This document shows positions 24,001 through 48,000 of a DNA stretch of 64,000 nucleotides, piece after piece. Source of the stretch: an uncultured Methanoregulaceae archaeon. GTDB lineage: Archaea > Halobacteriota > Methanomicrobia > Methanomicrobiales > Methanospirillaceae. A program made the position numbers. Numbering within the stretch: the stretch's first letter is position 1; each line of letters starts with the position of its first letter. Where the stretch lies: the NCBI GenBank assembly GCA_963701095.1, contig OY969564.1, positions 448,001-512,000 of the forward strand, written 5' to 3'.

Positions 24001-27000
24001 ATGCCTATCAATCGGTAAGTTCAGGAGCGAGCCCCTCAACGGCCTCGACTGTGGTCTCGACCCTAACACCTGGTGAAGATAATCCGCCTGTATCTGATTA
24101 CGGTTCAGGACCTGCGGATAATAGCACAGTGGTCCCTACGCCGGTTTCACAGGATCTATCACAGTATTCTACTATTCAGACTGCACAGGGAAGTCCCTTG
24201 TCCCCCGTGACTGGATACATTGCGATCATAGTCATAATAGTATTAATTCGGAGAAAGGGGTAACAGGTCTCTAAATTGGAAATTATTAATGCGATTTAAT
24301 TCTATAATGGTGATTATTCAGAAATGATTGTTTCAAAAATAAAATAGTTTAATTGACTTTTATTACCTGTGTAAGCCAGGCATTTTTCTGATTATGAACT
24401 ACCAGAAGTATTACTAATATTCCTCATGACGATGTTCAGGTTTGATTGAGCATCGGAATATTCAGGGGCAATTTGGAGGGCCTTTTCGAAGGAATCACGA
24501 GCTCCCGTATAATTTCCCATGTCCATTAATGCAACACCCCTGCTGTTCCATACATCCGCAAGATCACTTTCTATGGCAAGAGCAGAGTTAAACGATGATA
24601 CCGCAGCGGATGTTTGGTTCAATGCCATAAAGGCATTTCCTTGGTCTACCCATGTTCGTGCGTTCGTTGGATCTAACGCAAGGGATTGATTGTAGAATCC
24701 AATTGCAGTAGCGTAATCTCCCATGACGTATGCATTAAAACCGCTGGTGTGCAGGGTGACAGCGTCTGAAACGGCCGGCGTCGTCGGTTGAGTCATCTGT
24801 TGGGTTTCTTGTGATACCGAATTGTTGTTTACGCAGCCGCACACTATAACCACAACAAGGATTAGCGCCGTAATTACCACGAATCTTTTAAAGGACATAG
24901 TAGTTTCAATTCATCGCAAAAATGATAAAGTTTTGTATGGAAAGGAAATATATTTCAAACAACTTGAAAAATATCTTCTAATCACAAAATTTTTTTATTT
25001 TCGAAAATGCATCAAGATGATCGAACGTTGAATAATTTAAAAAAATTTAGTATTCACTCCGCCGCTTTAAGACGTAGACTATGAACACCATGCCTAAGAC
25101 CATAGCTATTGGCAAGCCTACGGTGGGGAATTCAGGCACATACGGTATTTGCCGGACCGGGATAAGGCTGTCTTGATAACTAACTGAATCCCAGAGGATT
25201 ACACCGTACCACTGTCCCGCACTTGGAACGAATGACGAGTGCGATATTGCGTTGGTCACCAATGTGCTAACGGCGCTCTTTTCTCCGGGTGAAACAGGAC
25301 CTCCAGAAATTGATGTCCAATAAGCATTAGGTCCACCATTACCGAGTTGCCATATTGCACTCTGGATGGTATACTTGTCATTTGATCCCTCATTGTTCAG
25401 AATCCAGTTAATAGCCCCCCAATTGGCAGTAGGTACCTGAGATGGAACTAAACCTAATGTTGAATAAACATTCCATGTTTCTTTGTCCCCGTTTTGCAGG
25501 ACGTCTACCCTATCACTGCACCACGAGACGTATAGCGGCGGTGAATTGGGAAGATCTCCAGTTCCTCCTGATATGATGTTAACTTGCGCGTATCCAAAGA
25601 GTGATGTAGGATACGTCACCATACCGTACACCGTTGTTGGTAACGCTGCCGAGGCTACAGAAACCAAGGCAACTAATCCAACAAGCATAGCCAAGATAAG
25701 GACTTTTCTCATACAAGCATTCCTCCTTTTTTCAAAATGATATCCAGTCGGGAGATATTATAAATAAATGCGAAGCACAGAAGCAATGCAGATCTTTTTT
25801 GTGATTTGAAAATTGTTCAGAACCATTAAAAGAGAAAAAAATTAGATTTCACTCCGCCGCTTTGCGACGTACACTGTGAATACCATGCCCAACACCATAG
25901 CTCACCGGCAATCCGACGGTTGGGAATTCAGGGTACTGGCGGTGGTGTTTTTGGGACCGGGAGAGGGATAAGAATATCTTGAGTGGTTTTTGAATCCCAG
26001 AGGATTACACCGTACCACTGTCCCGCACTTGGAACGAATGAAGCATGTGATAATGCAGTGGTTACCAATGTGCTTACAGCAGCCTTTTCAGCGGGAGTAA
26101 CTGGAGACCAATAGGCGTGAGGTCCACCATTACCAAGTTGCCATATTGCGCTCTGGACGACGTGCTCGTCGTTCGACCCTTCGTTGTTCAGTATCCAGTT
26201 AATAGCGCCCCAATTGGCAGTAGGTACCTGAGATGGAACGACACCCAATGTTGAATAAACATTCCATGTTTCAACCTTTGCATTTTGCAGGACACCTTCT
26301 TTGTCAACGCACCAGCCAGGGTATAGTGGCGGTGAATTGGCAAGATCTGCATTTCCTCCTGATATAACATCAAATTTCACATACCCAAAGAGTGATGAAG
26401 GGTACGTTGCTTTACCAGTCACAGTCGTTGGTAACGCTGCCGAGGCTACAGAAACCAAGGCAACTAAGCCAACGAGAATGGCCAAAATAAGGACTTTCCT
26501 CATATAAGCATACCTCCTTTTAACAAATTGATAACCTTCCGGAGATATTATAAATAAATGCGATGCAGCGATGCATGGCATCTGGTTCCATGAATGTAAT
26601 TTATATGCTCCTTGAGGGAAGACGGCATGTTTGTAAAGGAAATAAAGGCGATATAAACGATTACTTCAGCCGGTCGACAAGCGAGTGAAAGCGAAGATAG
26701 TATTGCTTGCCCGGCTCTCTTCAGTTTTTTCGCTACACTAGGCGAGTCATTCTATAATAAAAATATTTTTCAAATAACCGAAGATTTCGATCTTACGATA
26801 AATCAAGCTCGTTATTTTGCTTCAATGCATGGTATATACTTGACATAAGATTATTTATTGGTGACAACCACTTCAACTGATAATAGGGAACGGTAGTTCC
26901 GTTGAATTTTCTTTTGAAAGGAAACAGGGAATAATCATCGGCACCCAGGATCTGAAAGACCTTATAGTGATTATCCGCACTCCACCGTATTGCTTCCCAG

Positions 27001-45000: not shown

Positions 45001-48000
45001 TATTCATGATGCCCTCTCTACTAGATATCAGCAGCAAGGACTTAAATCCATTAATTACAAAAATTATTTACAATCTCTTTATAAGGAATTTCAGAAGAAT
45101 ATGAAAATATTTGTGGCGGAGTACCAGGGCCAACGAGTTGGGGGAACCATCAATCTTTTTTTCAAAGATGTCATGTATCTCTGGGTAGGGATTCCGAAGA
45201 GTGATCTTGTCGGGATCTCTCCTAACGCAGTGATTCAGTGGGAAGCAATTAAATGGGCACATGCGAATGGGATCGGGATCTATGAAGAAATGGATGCAGG
45301 TCATGATCCTCGTTTACGATATTTTAAATCAAAATTCAATCCAGATTTGGAGATCTGGTATTCTGCGACCAAATATTCGTCATTTAGCTACAGGATCGGA
45401 AAAGAATTATTCGATCTTGCACGAAAAATTAATTTCCAAAAAATTCGATCGAGGTAACCACAATAAGATACCATGTCGTTAATAAAATTTATTAAAAAAA
45501 TGATATTTGCCGGTTTTTCTTATCTTCCGGGTACGATAAAAATCATCTCTTATAGGGCATTAGGTGCAAATATTGGAAAAAATGTTGAATTGGGCATGGG
45601 ATCGATAATTAAGCCGTTTGACGGCGATTTTAAAAAAATCCAAATATCCGACGGTGTCATTATTGGGGATGATGTAAAAATTCTCGCAAAATACCTTATC
45701 CTTGGTGAAGGTTCACAGATTAAGGCTTCGACACGCATCTGGGGACAATCATCATTTTCTCTGGGTCCTTTGGGTTATATCGATAGGGAATGTCATTTTG
45801 ATTTACGGAAGGATATCACGCTCGGAAAAGAAACAACAATTAGCGGGGGAAGCTGGTTCTACACTCACATGGTATTTCTTTCTGTTCTTGATGGGGCTCC
45901 GTTCACATTATCTTCAATAAGAGTTGGTGACCGGACATATCTGGGTGCAAATGCGTTTGTTCTACCCGGAGTTACTATTGGTCATGATGCGGTGGTGGGT
46001 GCGCGATCCGTAGTTACACGGGATGTCGAATCAAATGCGGTTGTAGTGGGTAACCCGGCACGTCAGATCGGAAAGACTCCAGAACGATTCAAAAAATTAG
46101 TATTTGCTGATAAGGAACTTTTAGTAAAAGAGATCCTTGATCAGTTCATTGAAGTGTATGATAAAAATACAAAGGTGGTTGGGGACGCAACTAATAAGAG
46201 TTACCGTTTCGTGCATGGTAATCATTTCATCTATTATCAATCTCTCATCACCGATCTAACGATGATAGAAGATTTTGTTAAACGAGACCAGCCGCCTAAT
46301 GTAATAATATCTTTCGGGATTTCCGATAAAATTAAAGAATATTGCCTGCGGCACAAAATTGAATGGATTGATCTGGAATCAGGGAAGCATTCCAAAAAAA
46401 TCTCTGCTGCAGGTCTGACTATTGAGAACTTCTTTAGTAATTATGGTATCAGATTTCAACCTGAATAATATCTAAAACCGACGCAACTGGTACTGCAATC
46501 TGCGCCGGAAAGAAATCCAAGACTTGTATATATTTTAAAGACTTCTTATTTCGTCAATGATCCCAAATAAACGTCCTTTTACATCCAGGTTTGATTGGTA
46601 GGTTTCAAACCCCGGGCATTGGATTTTTATTGTATGTATACCGCGGTTTAAATTTACGTCCACTTCGCCTTGCGCGTTAGCGAGGTAATATTTTGTATCG
46701 ATAATAACTTCGGCATTTCTCAAAGGTTCTCCTGCTTCGTCTTGTAATTTGATATTAAGGAGCCCCTCAGTCATATGTTTAGGCAGATTTACAATGATTT
46801 TTCCTCTGGGTTCCATTGGTTGGACGAGAATTTCTTGTGTTTGATATGCGGGAATGTCTGTACTGATATCAAGGATAACATTTCCGTTATCCTGTGTCAT
46901 TCTTACAATTTTTCCTTTGCTGACATAATATTCTCCGGATTCCAATGTCGGCAATATTACTTGGAAGGCAACTTGTGTTGCACTCTTGTTGTTTTTATTA
47001 GTCATATTAATCATAGCCACATCATTTAGCACAGTCCCATTATACTGAATGTTTTGGATCTCTTTGTAATGCTCCGCTATGACATCTGGCGTCGTAAACG
47101 TCAGACCATTATTATTAGCATACGAGATTAGTGATTGGATATAATCGGTATATGCCGGATTGCCAATATCACCAGATCGAATGATAAACAGAGCCATTTC
47201 ATTCATAGCTACAGATTCATCTATGGTCGCTTTCCAGGCGGAAAGGGTTGTAAATGGATCTATCTGGCTTGAAAGTTCGGAACTCGTCGGAGCAGATACA
47301 GGAAGCAAAGCGATATTTGTGGGACTATTATGATACATCGCTAACTCCGGGTCTCTTATTTGCTGCCCTATTATTCCATAATATGGTGGAGATACATATG
47401 TTGGAAGCATGAGGGAGAAATGGTCGTCTGATATTATTTTAAGCGTATCAAGATTATACTCTAGCATGCTTGGCATGTAGCCGATGAGCGGGATATGGCT
47501 TTCGCTTGCAGCGCTTATCACCGCTTCTATATCACTTGCCTGAGTACTATAATTGTTAAACGTATTCGCTACACCAGTTGAGCTTGAACCGATTATTTTA
47601 ATTCCTCTACTATTTATTGAGCTCAAATCCACAGTTCCGATTTTTGTCGTGTTCTGAATTGTGACATTCCCTCCCTCCGATATTGATGAATTTTGGGACA
47701 TGATTATATTCTGCTGAGGAAGCACACCTTCAGTATAAGGGACACTATCGTTAAGGAGGATGTTGTAGCCCTCATTTACATAATCAGAAGAACCGAGATC
47801 CGAGGTTGGAGTGCGATACCCCACAAGCATTATCGGGACTATGCCATCAGGATAGTCCAAAAGGCTGATCCCATCCTGTGAATGGATATTGTTTTCAGCA
47901 GTTATTTGATCTCCCGGTGAAAGGAATTGGGTGATATGCAATGTTGCTCCCGGCTCGAGAGAATCGGTCTGGGAAAAACTGACACTGCTCATATTGTAAA

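Follow-up and report, generated by a model that had tools for sequence, protein, structure and literature searches.

A possible protein-sorting locus organised around an unclassified exosortase-family gene in an uncultured Methanoregulaceae archaeon

The window (the whole 64-kb stretch of DNA analysed, from a 2.63-Mb genome) contains a low-GC island, G+C 0.35–0.41 against 0.48 genome-wide (Table 1). Best explained, at about an even chance, as a conserved archaeal protein-sorting system: an unclassified exosortase-family transpeptidase, PEF-CTERM substrates and an acceptor-building pathway. The island is organised around the exosortase-family gene, next to which the glycan genes are conserved in different families and in a second phylum. 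Such a system, if real, would point to a way in which these archaea attach surface proteins to an anchor built on sugar. Gene coordinates and profile scans place all genes named in the first-pass annotation where it had put them, in a low-GC island. Its limits, 26793–46468, are too narrow: the functional unit spans at least 22938–53204, and the PEF-CTERM genes at 25047–26581 and the BshC-like gene at 31005–32570 had been missed. Specific NCBIfam matches (TIGR03019, FemX, VimE, BshB, PEF-CTERM) are all under the curated cut-offs, as already stated there for the Fem matches.

Table 1. Features of the island and its surroundings, in window positions
Position	Strand	Assignment	Evidence
18967..19911	-	Gfo/Idh/MocA oxidoreductase, UDP-GlcNAc 3-dehydrogenase-like (WbpB-type step)	PF01408 79 bits; NF040723 169.5 bits, cut-off 450
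20204..22930	+	Regulator-like protein, five PAS domains	Pfam and NCBIfam PAS matches
22938..24263	+	Secreted beta-propeller protein, C-terminal TM anchor then RRK	PQQ_2 above cut-off; TM segments at both ends
24392..24898	-	TPR protein, N-terminal TM or lipoprotein-like signal	TPR families; weak XrtA-system PrsT match
25047..25712	-	PEF-CTERM protein, 221 aa, signal peptide, tail ...VPEFPTVGLP, TM helix, KRRSEY	Tail read directly; TIGR03024 20.8 bits, cut-off 23
25740..26581	-	Tandem paralogue of the 221-aa PEF-CTERM gene	PEF/TM/basic tail split over three reading frames
26793..27830	-	Fem1, FemX-like tandem-GNAT transferase	PF02388 42.8 bits; PF13480 42.6 bits; TIGR03019 42.5 bits
27945..29405	-	MOP/Wzx-type flippase	Polysacc_synt_3 78 bits; 9 windows over hydropathy threshold
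29604..30605	+	GT4 (MraY/WecA/AglH-type) polyprenyl-phosphate HexNAc-1-P transferase, priming enzyme	PF00953 92.5 bits; invariant D108-D109
30636..30998	+	Small 3-TM protein, N-terminal part of DUF1616	PF07760 29.7 bits, cut-off 31.6; TM segments; conserved synteny
31005..32570	+	BshC-like protein, 521 aa, class-I aminoacyl-tRNA-synthetase-like fold, CxC...CxxC zinc ribbon	AF2 and Foldseek
32570..33193	+	PIG-L/LmbE-family de-N-acetylase, BshB-like	PF02585 75.7 bits; BshB1 72.9 bits, below cut-off; PHTDD and HQDH motifs invariant
33203..34294	+	DUF354 protein, probable glycosyltransferase	PF04007 79 bits; weak MJ1255/VC2487 glycosyltransferase family match, E 0.011
34291..35919	+	VimE-like (CE4-type) sugar de-N-acetylase, extra N-terminal domain of ~180 aa	NF053580 86.4 bits, cut-off 440, model positions 161–422 of 431 covered; THDVDE and three His invariant
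35916..36968	+	Fem2, FemX-like tandem-GNAT transferase	PF13480 43.4 bits; TIGR03019 57.4 bits
37009..38046	+	Fem3, FemX-like tandem-GNAT transferase	Pfam and NCBIfam matches; 46% identical to Fem2
38083..38985	-	Exosortase/archaeosortase-family membrane transpeptidase (sortase)	TIGR04178 40.1 bits, cut-off 23
39030..39440	-	136-aa single-TM protein, related to C-terminal part of DUF1616	Synteny; L108 homologue matches PF07760 157-272
39540..40697	-	Regulator, HTH and two PAS domains	Pfam/NCBIfam scans
40879..44289	+	Secreted 1136-aa protein, Ig-like domain	He_PIG 34.7 bits; signal peptide
44417..45457	+	Fem4, FemX-like tandem-GNAT transferase, the paralogue modelled	PF13480 50.8 bits; PF02388 35 bits
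45473..46468	+	Hexapeptide-repeat acetyltransferase	PF00132 54.8 bits; WcaF-family 76 bits, below cut-off
46535..50446	-	~13-TM 1303-aa protein, TM part N-terminal, large extracytoplasmic part	TM prediction
50607..53204	+	Secreted 865-aa protein, possibly heparinase II/III / alginate-lyase-like	Atlas structure neighbours with Hepar_II_III_C/DUF4962, TM 0.71
59675..61105	-	PEF-CTERM protein, Big_1 domain, tail ...SVPEFPSLILP, TM helix, KNRKE	Tail and domain read

From gene content, folds, residues, synteny and co-distribution we infer the following chemical steps, with their aminoacyl-tRNA donor, acceptor role and cleavage site. The GT4 enzyme would prime polyprenyl phosphate with HexNAc, to be extended by the DUF354 protein and possibly other transferases. 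The PIG-L and VimE-like deacetylases would expose sugar amines at the cytoplasmic face, onto which amino acids or a short peptide would be loaded by the BshC-like ligase together with as many as four FemX-like transferases. The MOP flippase would turn the lipid-linked aminoacyl glycan outward. Exported proteins would be cut by the sortase at the PEF motif via a Cys193 thioester; the aminoacyl glycan would then resolve the acyl-enzyme through its free alpha-amine, so that the new protein C-terminus is left amide-linked to glycan or glycolipid. Heparinase-like lyases and a GT-C-like protein may trim or transfer the glycan, which possibly contains uronic acid. Precedents for the scheme are Fem/sortase A, Wbp/Vim/PorU and PssA/PssD/ArtA. 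As described in PMC7468200 (Veith et al. 2020), VimE and VimA produce the linking sugar, in seryl or glycyl form, for the PorU sortase, VimA matches TIGR03019, and its authors suggest a like role in exosortase loci; the idea of an aminoacyl glycan as acceptor is already published there for bacteria. artA is described as clustered with pssA and pssD, makers of ArtA's proposed amine acceptor (PMC7157517).

Two sortase-family genes are present in the genome: ArtA (311 bits) and the island gene. The island sortase matches none of the NCBIfam models for ArtA to ArtH, including ArtC, at E ≤ 1, and by these models is an unclassified subfamily. C193 (in DCTGIWS), R239 and H260 are invariant in 13 orthologues. 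The 136-aa single-TM protein is a constant partner in Methanomicrobiales and Altiarchaeota. Two tail classes occur in the genome, PGF-CTERM (2) and PEF-CTERM (about 11), the latter with (V/I/L)PEFP(S/T) followed by a TM helix and basic residues. The 221-aa protein is a predicted substrate, its homologues adjoining the sortase in other genomes; the Big_1 protein is the second intact PEF-CTERM protein of the window. In a three-frame translation of the tandem paralogue, ...YPEFPTVGLP and AMVLGMVFTVYVAKRRSEI fall in different frames, the split being either an assembly indel or the mark of a pseudogene. PEF-CTERM genes adjoin the sortase here and in loci L009/L029, L013, L015, L019/L024, L030, L033, L034, L035, L056, L061, L062, L064 and L070, and PEF(G/N) variants do so in Altiarchaeota (L065, L072, L073). 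TIGR03024 matches (E ≤ 0.01) are found in 21 of 30 sortase-positive versus 16 of 371 sortase-negative genomes. Four genomes (G027, G199, G288, G393) have PEF-CTERM matches, yet one sortase-family gene each; ArtA may serve PEF tails there too, or the assemblies may be broken.

Thirty of 401 Methanomicrobiales genomes carry the sortase, and it is also found in Altiarchaeota. The gene order GT4-DUF1616-BshC-like-PIG-L-DUF354-VimE-like-Fem...sortase is found again in other families, where sortase identity is 43–49% and Fem2 orthologues come after the VimE-like genes; parts of the order are kept in Altiarchaeota. GT4 is the most constant neighbour, adjoining the sortase in all six Altiarchaeota loci. 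Of 14 loci, 10 have a Fem gene no more than 10 kb from the sortase, as do 10 of a further 19; in the remaining 4 and 9, the sequence available around the sortase contains none. Close Fem orthologues (at least 300 bits, a threshold picked after the scores had been seen) are present in 24 of 30 sortase-positive versus 7 of 371 sortase-negative genomes. One of these seven, G288, has the complete module where a contig ends, next to the usual sortase partner. Co-distribution counts such as these and those for TIGR03024 overstate the case because related genomes are not independent. The wider Fem-like family is much commoner than the 7 of 107 genus and 18 of 407 order genomes first reported: a profile built from Fem1-4-type proteins (E ≤ 1e-8) finds it in 23 of 102 other genus genomes and 120 of 401 order genomes. 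Of the 371 genomes lacking the sortase, 94 have Fem-like genes (among them 43 of 48 in one genus, as triplets in another context). One true ArtC locus carries PEF-CTERM genes; Fem, PIG-L and GT4 genes are absent within 10 kb of it.

These last two observations would fit the view of the first-pass annotation, a surface or exopolysaccharide glycan with short tRNA-built peptide side chains, serving as decoration or as a wall-like polymer and made by an identical enzyme set. The sortase would then be independent, and PEF-CTERM proteins would be lipid-anchored, as proposed for ArtA, and merely surrounded or glycosylated by the glycan. The secreted lyase-like and GT-C-like proteins also suggest a polymer. 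The explanation is nevertheless judged unlikely: in two phyla the sortase is most tightly linked to the priming GT4 and to deacetylase and ligase genes rather than to polymerases; Pfam and NCBIfam scans found no Mur-type ligase or cross-linking enzyme; known sortase-type systems are described as clustering with acceptor genes (PMC7468200, PMC7157517). Because the sortase gene is the organising element and PEF-CTERM genes lie beside it, the aminoacyl glycan is better read as sortase acceptor than as free decoration.

The first-pass annotation had proposed murein-like chemistry. Its aminoacylated or peptidylated glycan is a reasonable product, since the paralogues are Fem-type and the two deacetylases beside them would free amino groups on sugars; the murein-like wall is unsupported, with no Mur-type ligases, no PBP-kind transpeptidase and no evidence of a glycan-strand polymerase. 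The suggested link to a provirus amidase is unsupported. That protein (Amidase_2 and TIG) lies 312 kb away, and a search of 381 order genomes found the amidase domain in only two, the studied genome and one without the sortase. Instead of a murein-like wall, we see in the locus a conserved module for protein sorting, with roughly half our confidence on the full sorting scheme.

The four Fem paralogues are 345–350 aa long, 32–46% identical pairwise, and the only Fem profile matches in the genome. TM prediction finds no TM segments in them. Fem1, Fem2 and Fem4 are basic (pI about 9.0–9.4); Fem3 has pI 7.7. Acetyltransf_6 is above its Pfam gathering score in all four (26.9–50.8 against 22), FemAB above cut-off in two (42.8 and 35 against 24). 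Both sequence and predicted fold uphold their Fem-type assignment: the best relative among solved structures is FemX (Fem4 against PDB sequences, E 3.5e-5; Fem4 AF2 model, pLDDT 86.6, Foldseek TM 0.70), and every one of the 18 best PDB fold matches to the Fem4 model is a transferase that depends on aminoacyl-tRNA (FemX, FemA, Sbb17/Sba18, MprF-type synthases). The substrate of Sbb17/Sba18 is the amino-sugar compound streptothrisamine. Fem1 and Fem4 have an FK dyad aligned to FemX F304-K305, of which K305 is described as catalytic (review PMC12945691). Fem2 and Fem3 have an invariant Lys two residues after this column and none in it; in the Fem4 model this loop is of low confidence (pLDDT below 50 at 298–304). 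The paralogues are probably aminoacyl-tRNA-dependent.

It is rather improbable that Fem1-4 are ordinary acyl-CoA-dependent N-acyltransferases, re-acylating deacetylated sugars and adding no amino acid. Acetyltransf_6, a GNAT family, is their best Pfam family, Fem-specific NCBIfam scores fall short, two paralogues lack the K305-column Lys, and acetyl-CoA tandem GNATs are also among the Fem4 fold matches. The latter match far worse, however (TM 0.36–0.42 versus 0.64–0.71 for aminoacyl-tRNA-dependent enzymes), the solved sequence relatives are FemX proteins only, VimA, the nearest studied relative by family, is described as setting which amino acid is placed on the sugar (PMC7468200), and four paralogues are less obviously needed for re-acylation than for peptide building. 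An MprF-like aminoacylation of a membrane lipid head group, with the aminoacyl lipid as sortase acceptor, is very unlikely. MprF, A-PGS and L-PGS domains rank 12–18 among the fold matches (TM 0.50–0.57), and ArtA's proposed acceptor is described as a lipid amine (PMC7157517); FemX and Sbb17 match better, and two sugar deacetylases, the priming GT4 and the flippase, all conserved with the Fem genes, would be left without a role.

For the 521-aa protein, Pfam and NCBIfam scans gave no family. Its AF2 model (pLDDT 91.8) has BshC 4wbd as best Foldseek match (E 5.5e-15, TM 0.56), LysRS-I being next; the fold is shared with BshC of bacillithiol synthesis, a class-I-synthetase-like ligase. H60-Q61-P62 and four Cys are invariant, and its gene adjoins that of the BshB-like (PIG-L) deacetylase. 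This fold makes it a candidate for a ligase that adds an amino acid to the product of PIG-L. The ligase activity of BshC itself is not known to have been reconstituted. The DUF354 protein, which we take to be GT-B, completes a triad with these two. That the triad makes a soluble low-molecular-weight thiol resembling bacillithiol, with no part in sorting, is highly improbable: it mirrors BshA/BshB/BshC, and archaeal BshA and BshC homologues are reported (PMC7278568), but only 2 of 30 members of the 521-aa protein's family, the island protein not among them, match the BshC Pfam model, and the triad is embedded between membrane priming transferase, flippase and sortase in two phyla.

Of the three largest genes, previously called giant secreted proteins, those for 1136 aa and 865 aa do encode secreted products, with N-terminal sequences resembling each other; the 1303-aa product has about 13 TM segments. 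Pfam and PDB sequence searches gave no match for the 865-aa protein, and its heparinase II/III likeness is a lead. A GT-C-like N-terminal part of the 1303-aa protein is likewise a lead, PMT_2/STT3 being carried by 11–32% of members of its atlas feature neighbours; the gene is syntenic with the sortase in other loci. The Gfo/Idh/MocA gene lies at the island edge and is an uncertain member. The five-PAS protein may have a role in the locus, judging by its position. Homologues of the beta-propeller protein adjoin GT4 and sortase in L033 and L034, those of the TPR protein adjoin the sortase in L029, L056 and L061, and those of the HTH/PAS regulator are present in L026, L036 and L064.

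The gene content described in the first-pass annotation is borne out by ORF listing and family scans of the window. The four FemX-like tandem-GNAT paralogues (Fem1 to Fem4) lie among the genes collected in the table. The G + C content is 0.35–0.41 from ~18 to 52 kb of the window and 0.48 in the genome. Of the public sequencing runs listed as containing this DNA, ten are DNA runs and none is an RNA run. The DD motif of the GT4 priming transferase is conserved in orthologues. Two large gene products give structural leads only: the Atlas structure of the 865-aa secreted protein is similar to heparinase II/III lyases (TM 0.71), and Atlas neighbours of the TM region at the N-terminus of the 1303-aa protein are GT-C-like. 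No useful match to the 865-aa protein or to the VimE-like protein is obtained by PDB sequence search.

Features of the island, its flanks and compared loci (window positions unless a locus is named)
Feature	Position	Strand	Product or content
Cobalamin biosynthesis cluster	11157–16878	+	Cbi-type methylases, CbiG, CbiC, CbiD
Third-anchor protein	22938–24263		...GSPLSPVTGYIAIIV...RRKG
PEF-CTERM gene	25047–25712		intact
Broken PEF tail	25740–25930		
Fem1	26793–27830	-	345–350 aa; Acetyltransf_6
521-aa protein	31005–32570	+	without family
PIG-L	32570–33193	+	deacetylase
VimE-like	34291–35919	+	deacetylase
Fem2	35916–36968	+	345–350 aa; Acetyltransf_6
Fem3	37009–38046	+	345–350 aa; Acetyltransf_6
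Sortase	38083–38985	-	exosortase-family protein
136-aa partner	39030–39440	-	single-TM protein
Secreted paralogue	40879–44289		N-terminal sequence shared with 865-aa protein
Fem4	44417–45457	+	345–350 aa; Acetyltransf_6
1303-aa protein	46535–50446	-	
865-aa protein	50607–53204	+	secreted
MutS	56048–58761	-	two overlapping ORFs: 56620–58761 (domains I–IV, start of V), 56048–56785 (rest of V)
PEF-CTERM gene	59675–61105		intact
Among and flanking the Fem genes			MOP flippase; GT4 (MraY/WecA-type) priming transferase; small DUF1616-like membrane protein; DUF354 protein; PAS regulator; hexapeptide acetyltransferase; three very large genes
True ArtC locus	L099:4141–8805		ArtC gene with two PEF-CTERM genes and a 1554-aa DUF1616 protein as neighbours
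Fem triplet	L105:8096–11576		beside PGA_cap (CapA-like) gene and unknown 500-aa proteins
Fem triplet	L106:9074–13342		
Module of G288	L108:6132–9172, 14572–16283		'sugar-transfer associated ATP-grasp', asparagine synthase, formyltransferase, CE4 deacetylase
Amidase_2 gene, own genome	L109:1072–3204 (contig ~799.9–802.0 kb)		710 aa; N-acetylmuramoyl-L-alanine amidase domain, five IPT/TIG domains

The preferred reading is a protein-sorting system. A lipid-linked glycan would be made first and de-N-acetylated. It would then be aminoacylated, possibly with a short peptide built by the Fem paralogues, and flipped outward. PEF-CTERM proteins would finally be transpeptidated onto the free amine. The chances of the whole scheme, with every chemical step a prediction, are put at about even. 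A cytoplasmic aminoacyl glycan that is then flipped is the simplest order, because aminoacyl-tRNA and ATP are available in the cytoplasm, the compartment of the Fem and BshC-like proteins, and the active site of the sortase faces outward. The scheme shares its logic with three known systems (Fem/sortase A, VimE/VimA/PorU and artA/pssA/pssD). The first-pass annotation took the glycan for a surface decoration and nothing more; this is possible but unlikely.

The genome has two exosortase/archaeosortase-family genes, ArtA (TIGR04125, 311 bits) and the sortase of the window. The latter belongs to the superfamily by score (TIGR04178, 40.1 bits against a cut-off of 23; PF09721, 61.9 against 25.7). 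Its sole specific NCBIfam matches, EpsH and XrtA, are weak (22.9 bits, cut-off 208), and the ArtA–H models, including ArtC (TIGR03762, cut-off 100), give no match at E ≤ 1. C193 (DCTGIWS), R239 and H260 are invariant in 13 orthologues. A profile of this subfamily, run over a sample of 401 genomes of the phylum, scores 371–470 bits in five Methanomicrobiales, and no hit outside these exceeds 59 bits. A true ArtC (TIGR03762, 267 bits) is among the weak hits with only 44.7 bits; the window sortase is thus not ArtC, the sortase assigned to PEF-CTERM. The subfamily is present in 30 of 401 genomes and 11 of 44 genera of the order. A scan of one genome per species gives 30 sortase loci, from Methanoregula/Methanoregulaceae, Methanogenium, Methanoculleus, Methanocalculus, Methanomicrobiaceae and Altiarchaeota; six are from Altiarchaeota (27–38% sortase identity). 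Two loci filed under Deltaproteobacteria (L050) and Thermotogaceae (L053) bins carry the sortase at 49–51% identity together with Fem, VimE-like and PIG-L genes; wrong binning of contigs from Methanomicrobiales is the likeliest cause.

Sorting tails were sought in all reading frames as a C-terminal motif followed by a hydrophobic helix and a basic cluster. In the genome two proteins carry a PGF-CTERM tail, and about eleven carry (V/I/L)PEFP(S/T). The window contributes two intact PEF-CTERM genes; the first has a tandem paralogue whose tail is split among three reading frames. The PEF/TM/basic tail is plain in sequence. TIGR03024 (cut-off 23) gives the protein 20.8 bits; searching the genome gives 22.4 bits, and 23.3 bits 'with its neighbours', a value flagged as exceeding the cut-off. 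PEF-CTERM genes adjoin the sortase in many loci, with PEF(G/N) variants in Altiarchaeota. TIGR03024 matches (E ≤ 0.01) occur in 21 of the 30 sortase-positive and 16 of the 371 sortase-negative genomes of the order. Two observations count against the pairing being exclusive: of the genomes with PEF hits, four (G027, G199, G288 and G393) show one sortase-family gene each, and the true ArtC locus also has PEF-CTERM genes. A predicted complex of the sortase, entered as a profile, and the C-terminal 57 residues of the PEF-CTERM protein scores 0.05, which counts neither way. In the ArtC locus of the table a DUF1616 protein stands beside the sortase as well. PEF-CTERM sortases of two kinds thus have DUF1616 at their side, and it may itself belong to the sorting machinery. 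A third C-terminal anchor, (T/K)(K/Q)SP(L/I/G) or similar followed by a TM helix and a basic end, recurs at many places in the genome. Proteins of this type may be degenerate PGF-CTERM-like substrates of ArtA.

Fem1 to Fem4 are the sole four matches of the Fem profile in the 2.63-Mb genome. They are old paralogues (pairwise identity 32–46%), each with separate orthologues in other genera. The Acetyltransf_6 gathering score is exceeded by all four; that of PF02388 FemAB (24) is exceeded by Fem1 (42.8 bits) and Fem4 (35.0), with Fem2 (20.2) and Fem3 (22.1) below it. The best NCBIfam match of all four is TIGR03019 (36.0–57.4 bits, curated cut-off 260), so that by score they are placed outside this equivalog. 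TM segments are absent. The pI is ~9.0–9.4 in three and 7.7 in Fem3. No dedicated tRNA gene is present in the window. The closest solved sequence relatives of Fem4 are FemX proteins only (E 3.5e-5; profile E 5e-10), and FemX is 17% identical to the paralogues. Fem4, the sole paralogue modelled (AlphaFold, pLDDT 86.6), has a predicted tandem GNAT (double acyl-CoA N-acyltransferase) fold, with TM 0.69–0.71 to FemX of W. viridescens. PDB fold ranks 1–18 are all aminoacyl-tRNA-dependent transferases, the others being FemX and FemA of S. aureus, Sbb17/Sba18 (substrate streptothrisamine) and MprF-type synthases. The catalytic residue of FemX is K305 according to a 2026 review (PMC12945691). In a profile-to-FemX alignment the FK of Fem1 and Fem4 falls on F304–K305; Fem2 and Fem3 have Y-A in these columns, and the invariant Lys of the family lies two residues later. 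Plain acyl-CoA N-acyltransferases are an improbable reading of these proteins. The fold ranking of Fem4 counts against it, TM to acetyl-CoA tandem GNATs being only 0.36–0.42. Lipid aminoacylation by the Fem proteins in the manner of MprF is less probable still, as it leaves the sugar enzymes of the locus without a role.

The 521-aa protein has 85 relatives, nearly all unnamed; the most distant one carries the BshC Pfam domain. PF10079 BshC matches two of 30 aligned family members (best E 8.4e-7) and gives no match to the protein of the window. A PDB profile search returns zinc-ribbon matches only. The model of the protein (pLDDT 91.8) has BshC 4wbd as best fold match (E 5.5e-15, TM 0.56/0.54), followed by class I LysRS and then other class I synthetases; the predicted likeness to BshC is one of fold only. 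The gene is directly upstream of the BshB-like PIG-L gene. The PIG-L protein is a member of its family by score (PF02585, 75.7 bits, cut-off 28.2), and PHTDD and HQDH, presumably the zinc-binding motifs, are invariant in 10 orthologues. The VimE-like protein scores 86.4 bits with NF053580, the model of the UDP-2,3-diacetamido-2,3-dideoxy-glucuronate deacetylase VimE, over model positions 161–422 of 431 (cut-off 440); THDVDE and three His are conserved in orthologues. Its predicted function is VimE-like, and by score it is outside the VimE family. A soluble bacillithiol-like thiol made by the DUF354/PIG-L/BshC-like triad is very improbable, since the membrane context counts against it.

The module is conserved in relatives; the sortase is accompanied by Fem enzymes, a BshC-like ligase, a priming transferase, a flippase and two de-N-acetylases. 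In other families of the order (43–49% sortase identity) the gene order is GT4–DUF1616–521-aa–PIG-L–DUF354–VimE-like–Fem...Fem–(hexapeptide transferase)...sortase. It is kept in L023–L026, L049, L050, L052, L058, L064 and L071. In the six Altiarchaeota loci, which are on short contigs, the sortase is adjoined by GT4 in all six; DUF1616 is found in five, the 136-aa partner in three, PIG-L, DUF354 and distant Fem-like genes in two each and the 521-aa gene in one. Fem genes are present in the examined stretch around the sortase in 10 of 14 loci and in 10 of 19 further loci. A Fem match (E ≤ 1e-8) is found in 26 of 30 sortase-positive genomes, with at least 300 bits in 24, a line set after the scores were seen; the four genomes without match are 65–88% complete. 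Where the sortase is missing (371 genomes), a Fem match is found in 94 genomes, and in seven it reaches 300 bits. One of the seven, G288, has the whole module at a contig end, adjoining the usual partner of the sortase. Further genes of this module (L108) are listed in the table. The asparagine synthase is a WbpS-type amidotransferase as named in the Wbp/Vim paper (PMC7468200). The ATP-grasp protein, the asparagine synthase and their companions are predicted to be further amide-forming enzymes of the same pathway. In one genus of the order Fem-like triplets (27–30% identical to the proteins of the window) occur in 43 of 48 genomes, and no sortase of the subfamily was found in the genus. The Fem-like family therefore has no fixed link to sorting; in the triplets, methanogens put Fem-like enzymes to another, separate use.

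Five known systems are comparable. In P. gingivalis and T. forsythia, as stated in PMC7468200, VimE deacetylates a Wbp-pathway sugar, VimA adds Ser/Gly, and PorU joins the cargo C-terminus to that residue; VimA matches TIGR03019, and the authors suggest a similar product for the VimA-like proteins encoded in exosortase loci. Here the VimE-like gene is likewise followed directly by a Fem gene, near a sortase-family gene. The island differs in the sortase (exosortase family here, PorU/C25 there), in the signal (PEF/TM/basic tail here, T9SS CTD there), in the host, an archaeon without outer membrane or LPS, and in the presence of four Fem paralogues, a BshC-like ligase and a PIG-L enzyme; VimA is likened by description only. 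The bacterial XrtA/EpsH PEP-CTERM system shares an exosortase-family transpeptidase, tripartite tails, EPS-type genes, a FemAB-like protein, a deacetylase and a TPR protein, as well as the Asn-synthase and ATP-grasp genes of the relative's locus. It differs in that scores here are far below the equivalog cut-offs, the host is archaeal and the motif is PEF, not PEP. In reviews and papers, including PMC7468200, the acceptor of bacterial exosortases is described as unidentified and exosortases as without experimental analysis. ArtA and ArtC are of the same superfamily and have the same Cys/Arg/His active site. According to PMC7157517, artA clusters with pssA and pssD, and the amine of an ethanolamine lipid is proposed to resolve the ArtA thioester; the neighbours of the window sortase are glycan and aminoacyl genes, not genes for lipid head groups. 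With FemX/FemA/FemB and sortase A of Gram-positive bacteria the module has in common tandem-GNATs, here predicted to depend on aminoacyl-tRNA as they do there. In the Gram-positive system the peptide that they make on a lipid-linked precursor offers its free amine to the sortase as nucleophile. The acceptor here would be a sugar amine instead of the Lys side chain of a muropeptide; peptidoglycan is absent and the sortase fold is unrelated. BshA–BshB–BshC and MshA–MshB–MshC are similar in combining a glycosyltransferase, a PIG-L/LmbE deacetylase and a class-I-synthetase-like ligase, with an amino acid put onto the amine of GlcN. The 521-aa protein differs in having no BshC Pfam match, an extra zinc ribbon and a membrane-glycan context.

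The association of FemAB-like genes, deacetylases and exosortases in bacteria is already curated (TIGR03019), and its meaning is suggested in PMC7468200. New are a subfamily of archaeal sortases that falls in none of the named Art families and is paired with PEF-type tails, a glycan/aminoacyl module conserved across Methanomicrobiales and Altiarchaeota, a BshC-like ligase, and four Fem paralogues in one locus. A search of the open literature gave no description of the module and no paper joining an exosortase with FemAB; the papers on archaeosortases and PEF-CTERM are not on the module. Among the 15 best matches listed, none pairs an archaeosortase with FemX or VimA and none describes the module, as judged by title and opening of the abstract. 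The subfamily defined here lacks a name in current NCBIfam models. The conserved genes of the locus form a compact set, from which a definite prediction follows that can be tested: the C-terminus of a protein would be joined by an amide bond to an aminoacyl amino-sugar. The locus brings predicted tRNA-dependent Fem transfer, along with a BshC-like ligase, into the biogenesis of archaeal surfaces, and links the envelopes of Methanomicrobiales and Altiarchaeota. It is proposed tentatively, as something rather short of probable, that archaea of at least two phyla have their own GPI-like C-terminal anchor. In it, a new archaeosortase subfamily would join PEF-CTERM proteins to aminoacyl- or peptidyl-glucosamine on a polyprenyl- or archaeol-linked glycan, with a linker from the BshC-like ligase and tRNA-dependent Fem enzymes. 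Such an anchor, if true, would supply the long-sought acceptor chemistry of the exosortase superfamily. If the BshC-like enzyme adds cysteine like BshC, the thiol could capture the sortase thioester, with a subsequent S-to-N shift.

The similarity of the 865-aa secreted protein to heparinase II/III or alginate lyases is a hint of uronic acids in the glycan. The first-pass annotation further suggested that the product of the locus could be the substrate of a provirus amidase. The link is unsupported: the Amidase_2 gene with five TIG domains is 312 kb away and nothing ties it to the locus. It is encoded in an archaeon without murein. As evidence for the module the amidase was rejected, since its domain is found in two of 381 genomes of the order (the present one and a sortase-negative one) and does not track the module. 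MutS is broken. With the broken PEF tail and a single-contig genome that is 86% complete, this points to indel errors of a long-read assembly, or to real pseudogenes. The cobalamin biosynthesis cluster lies directly upstream of the island and has normal G + C content.
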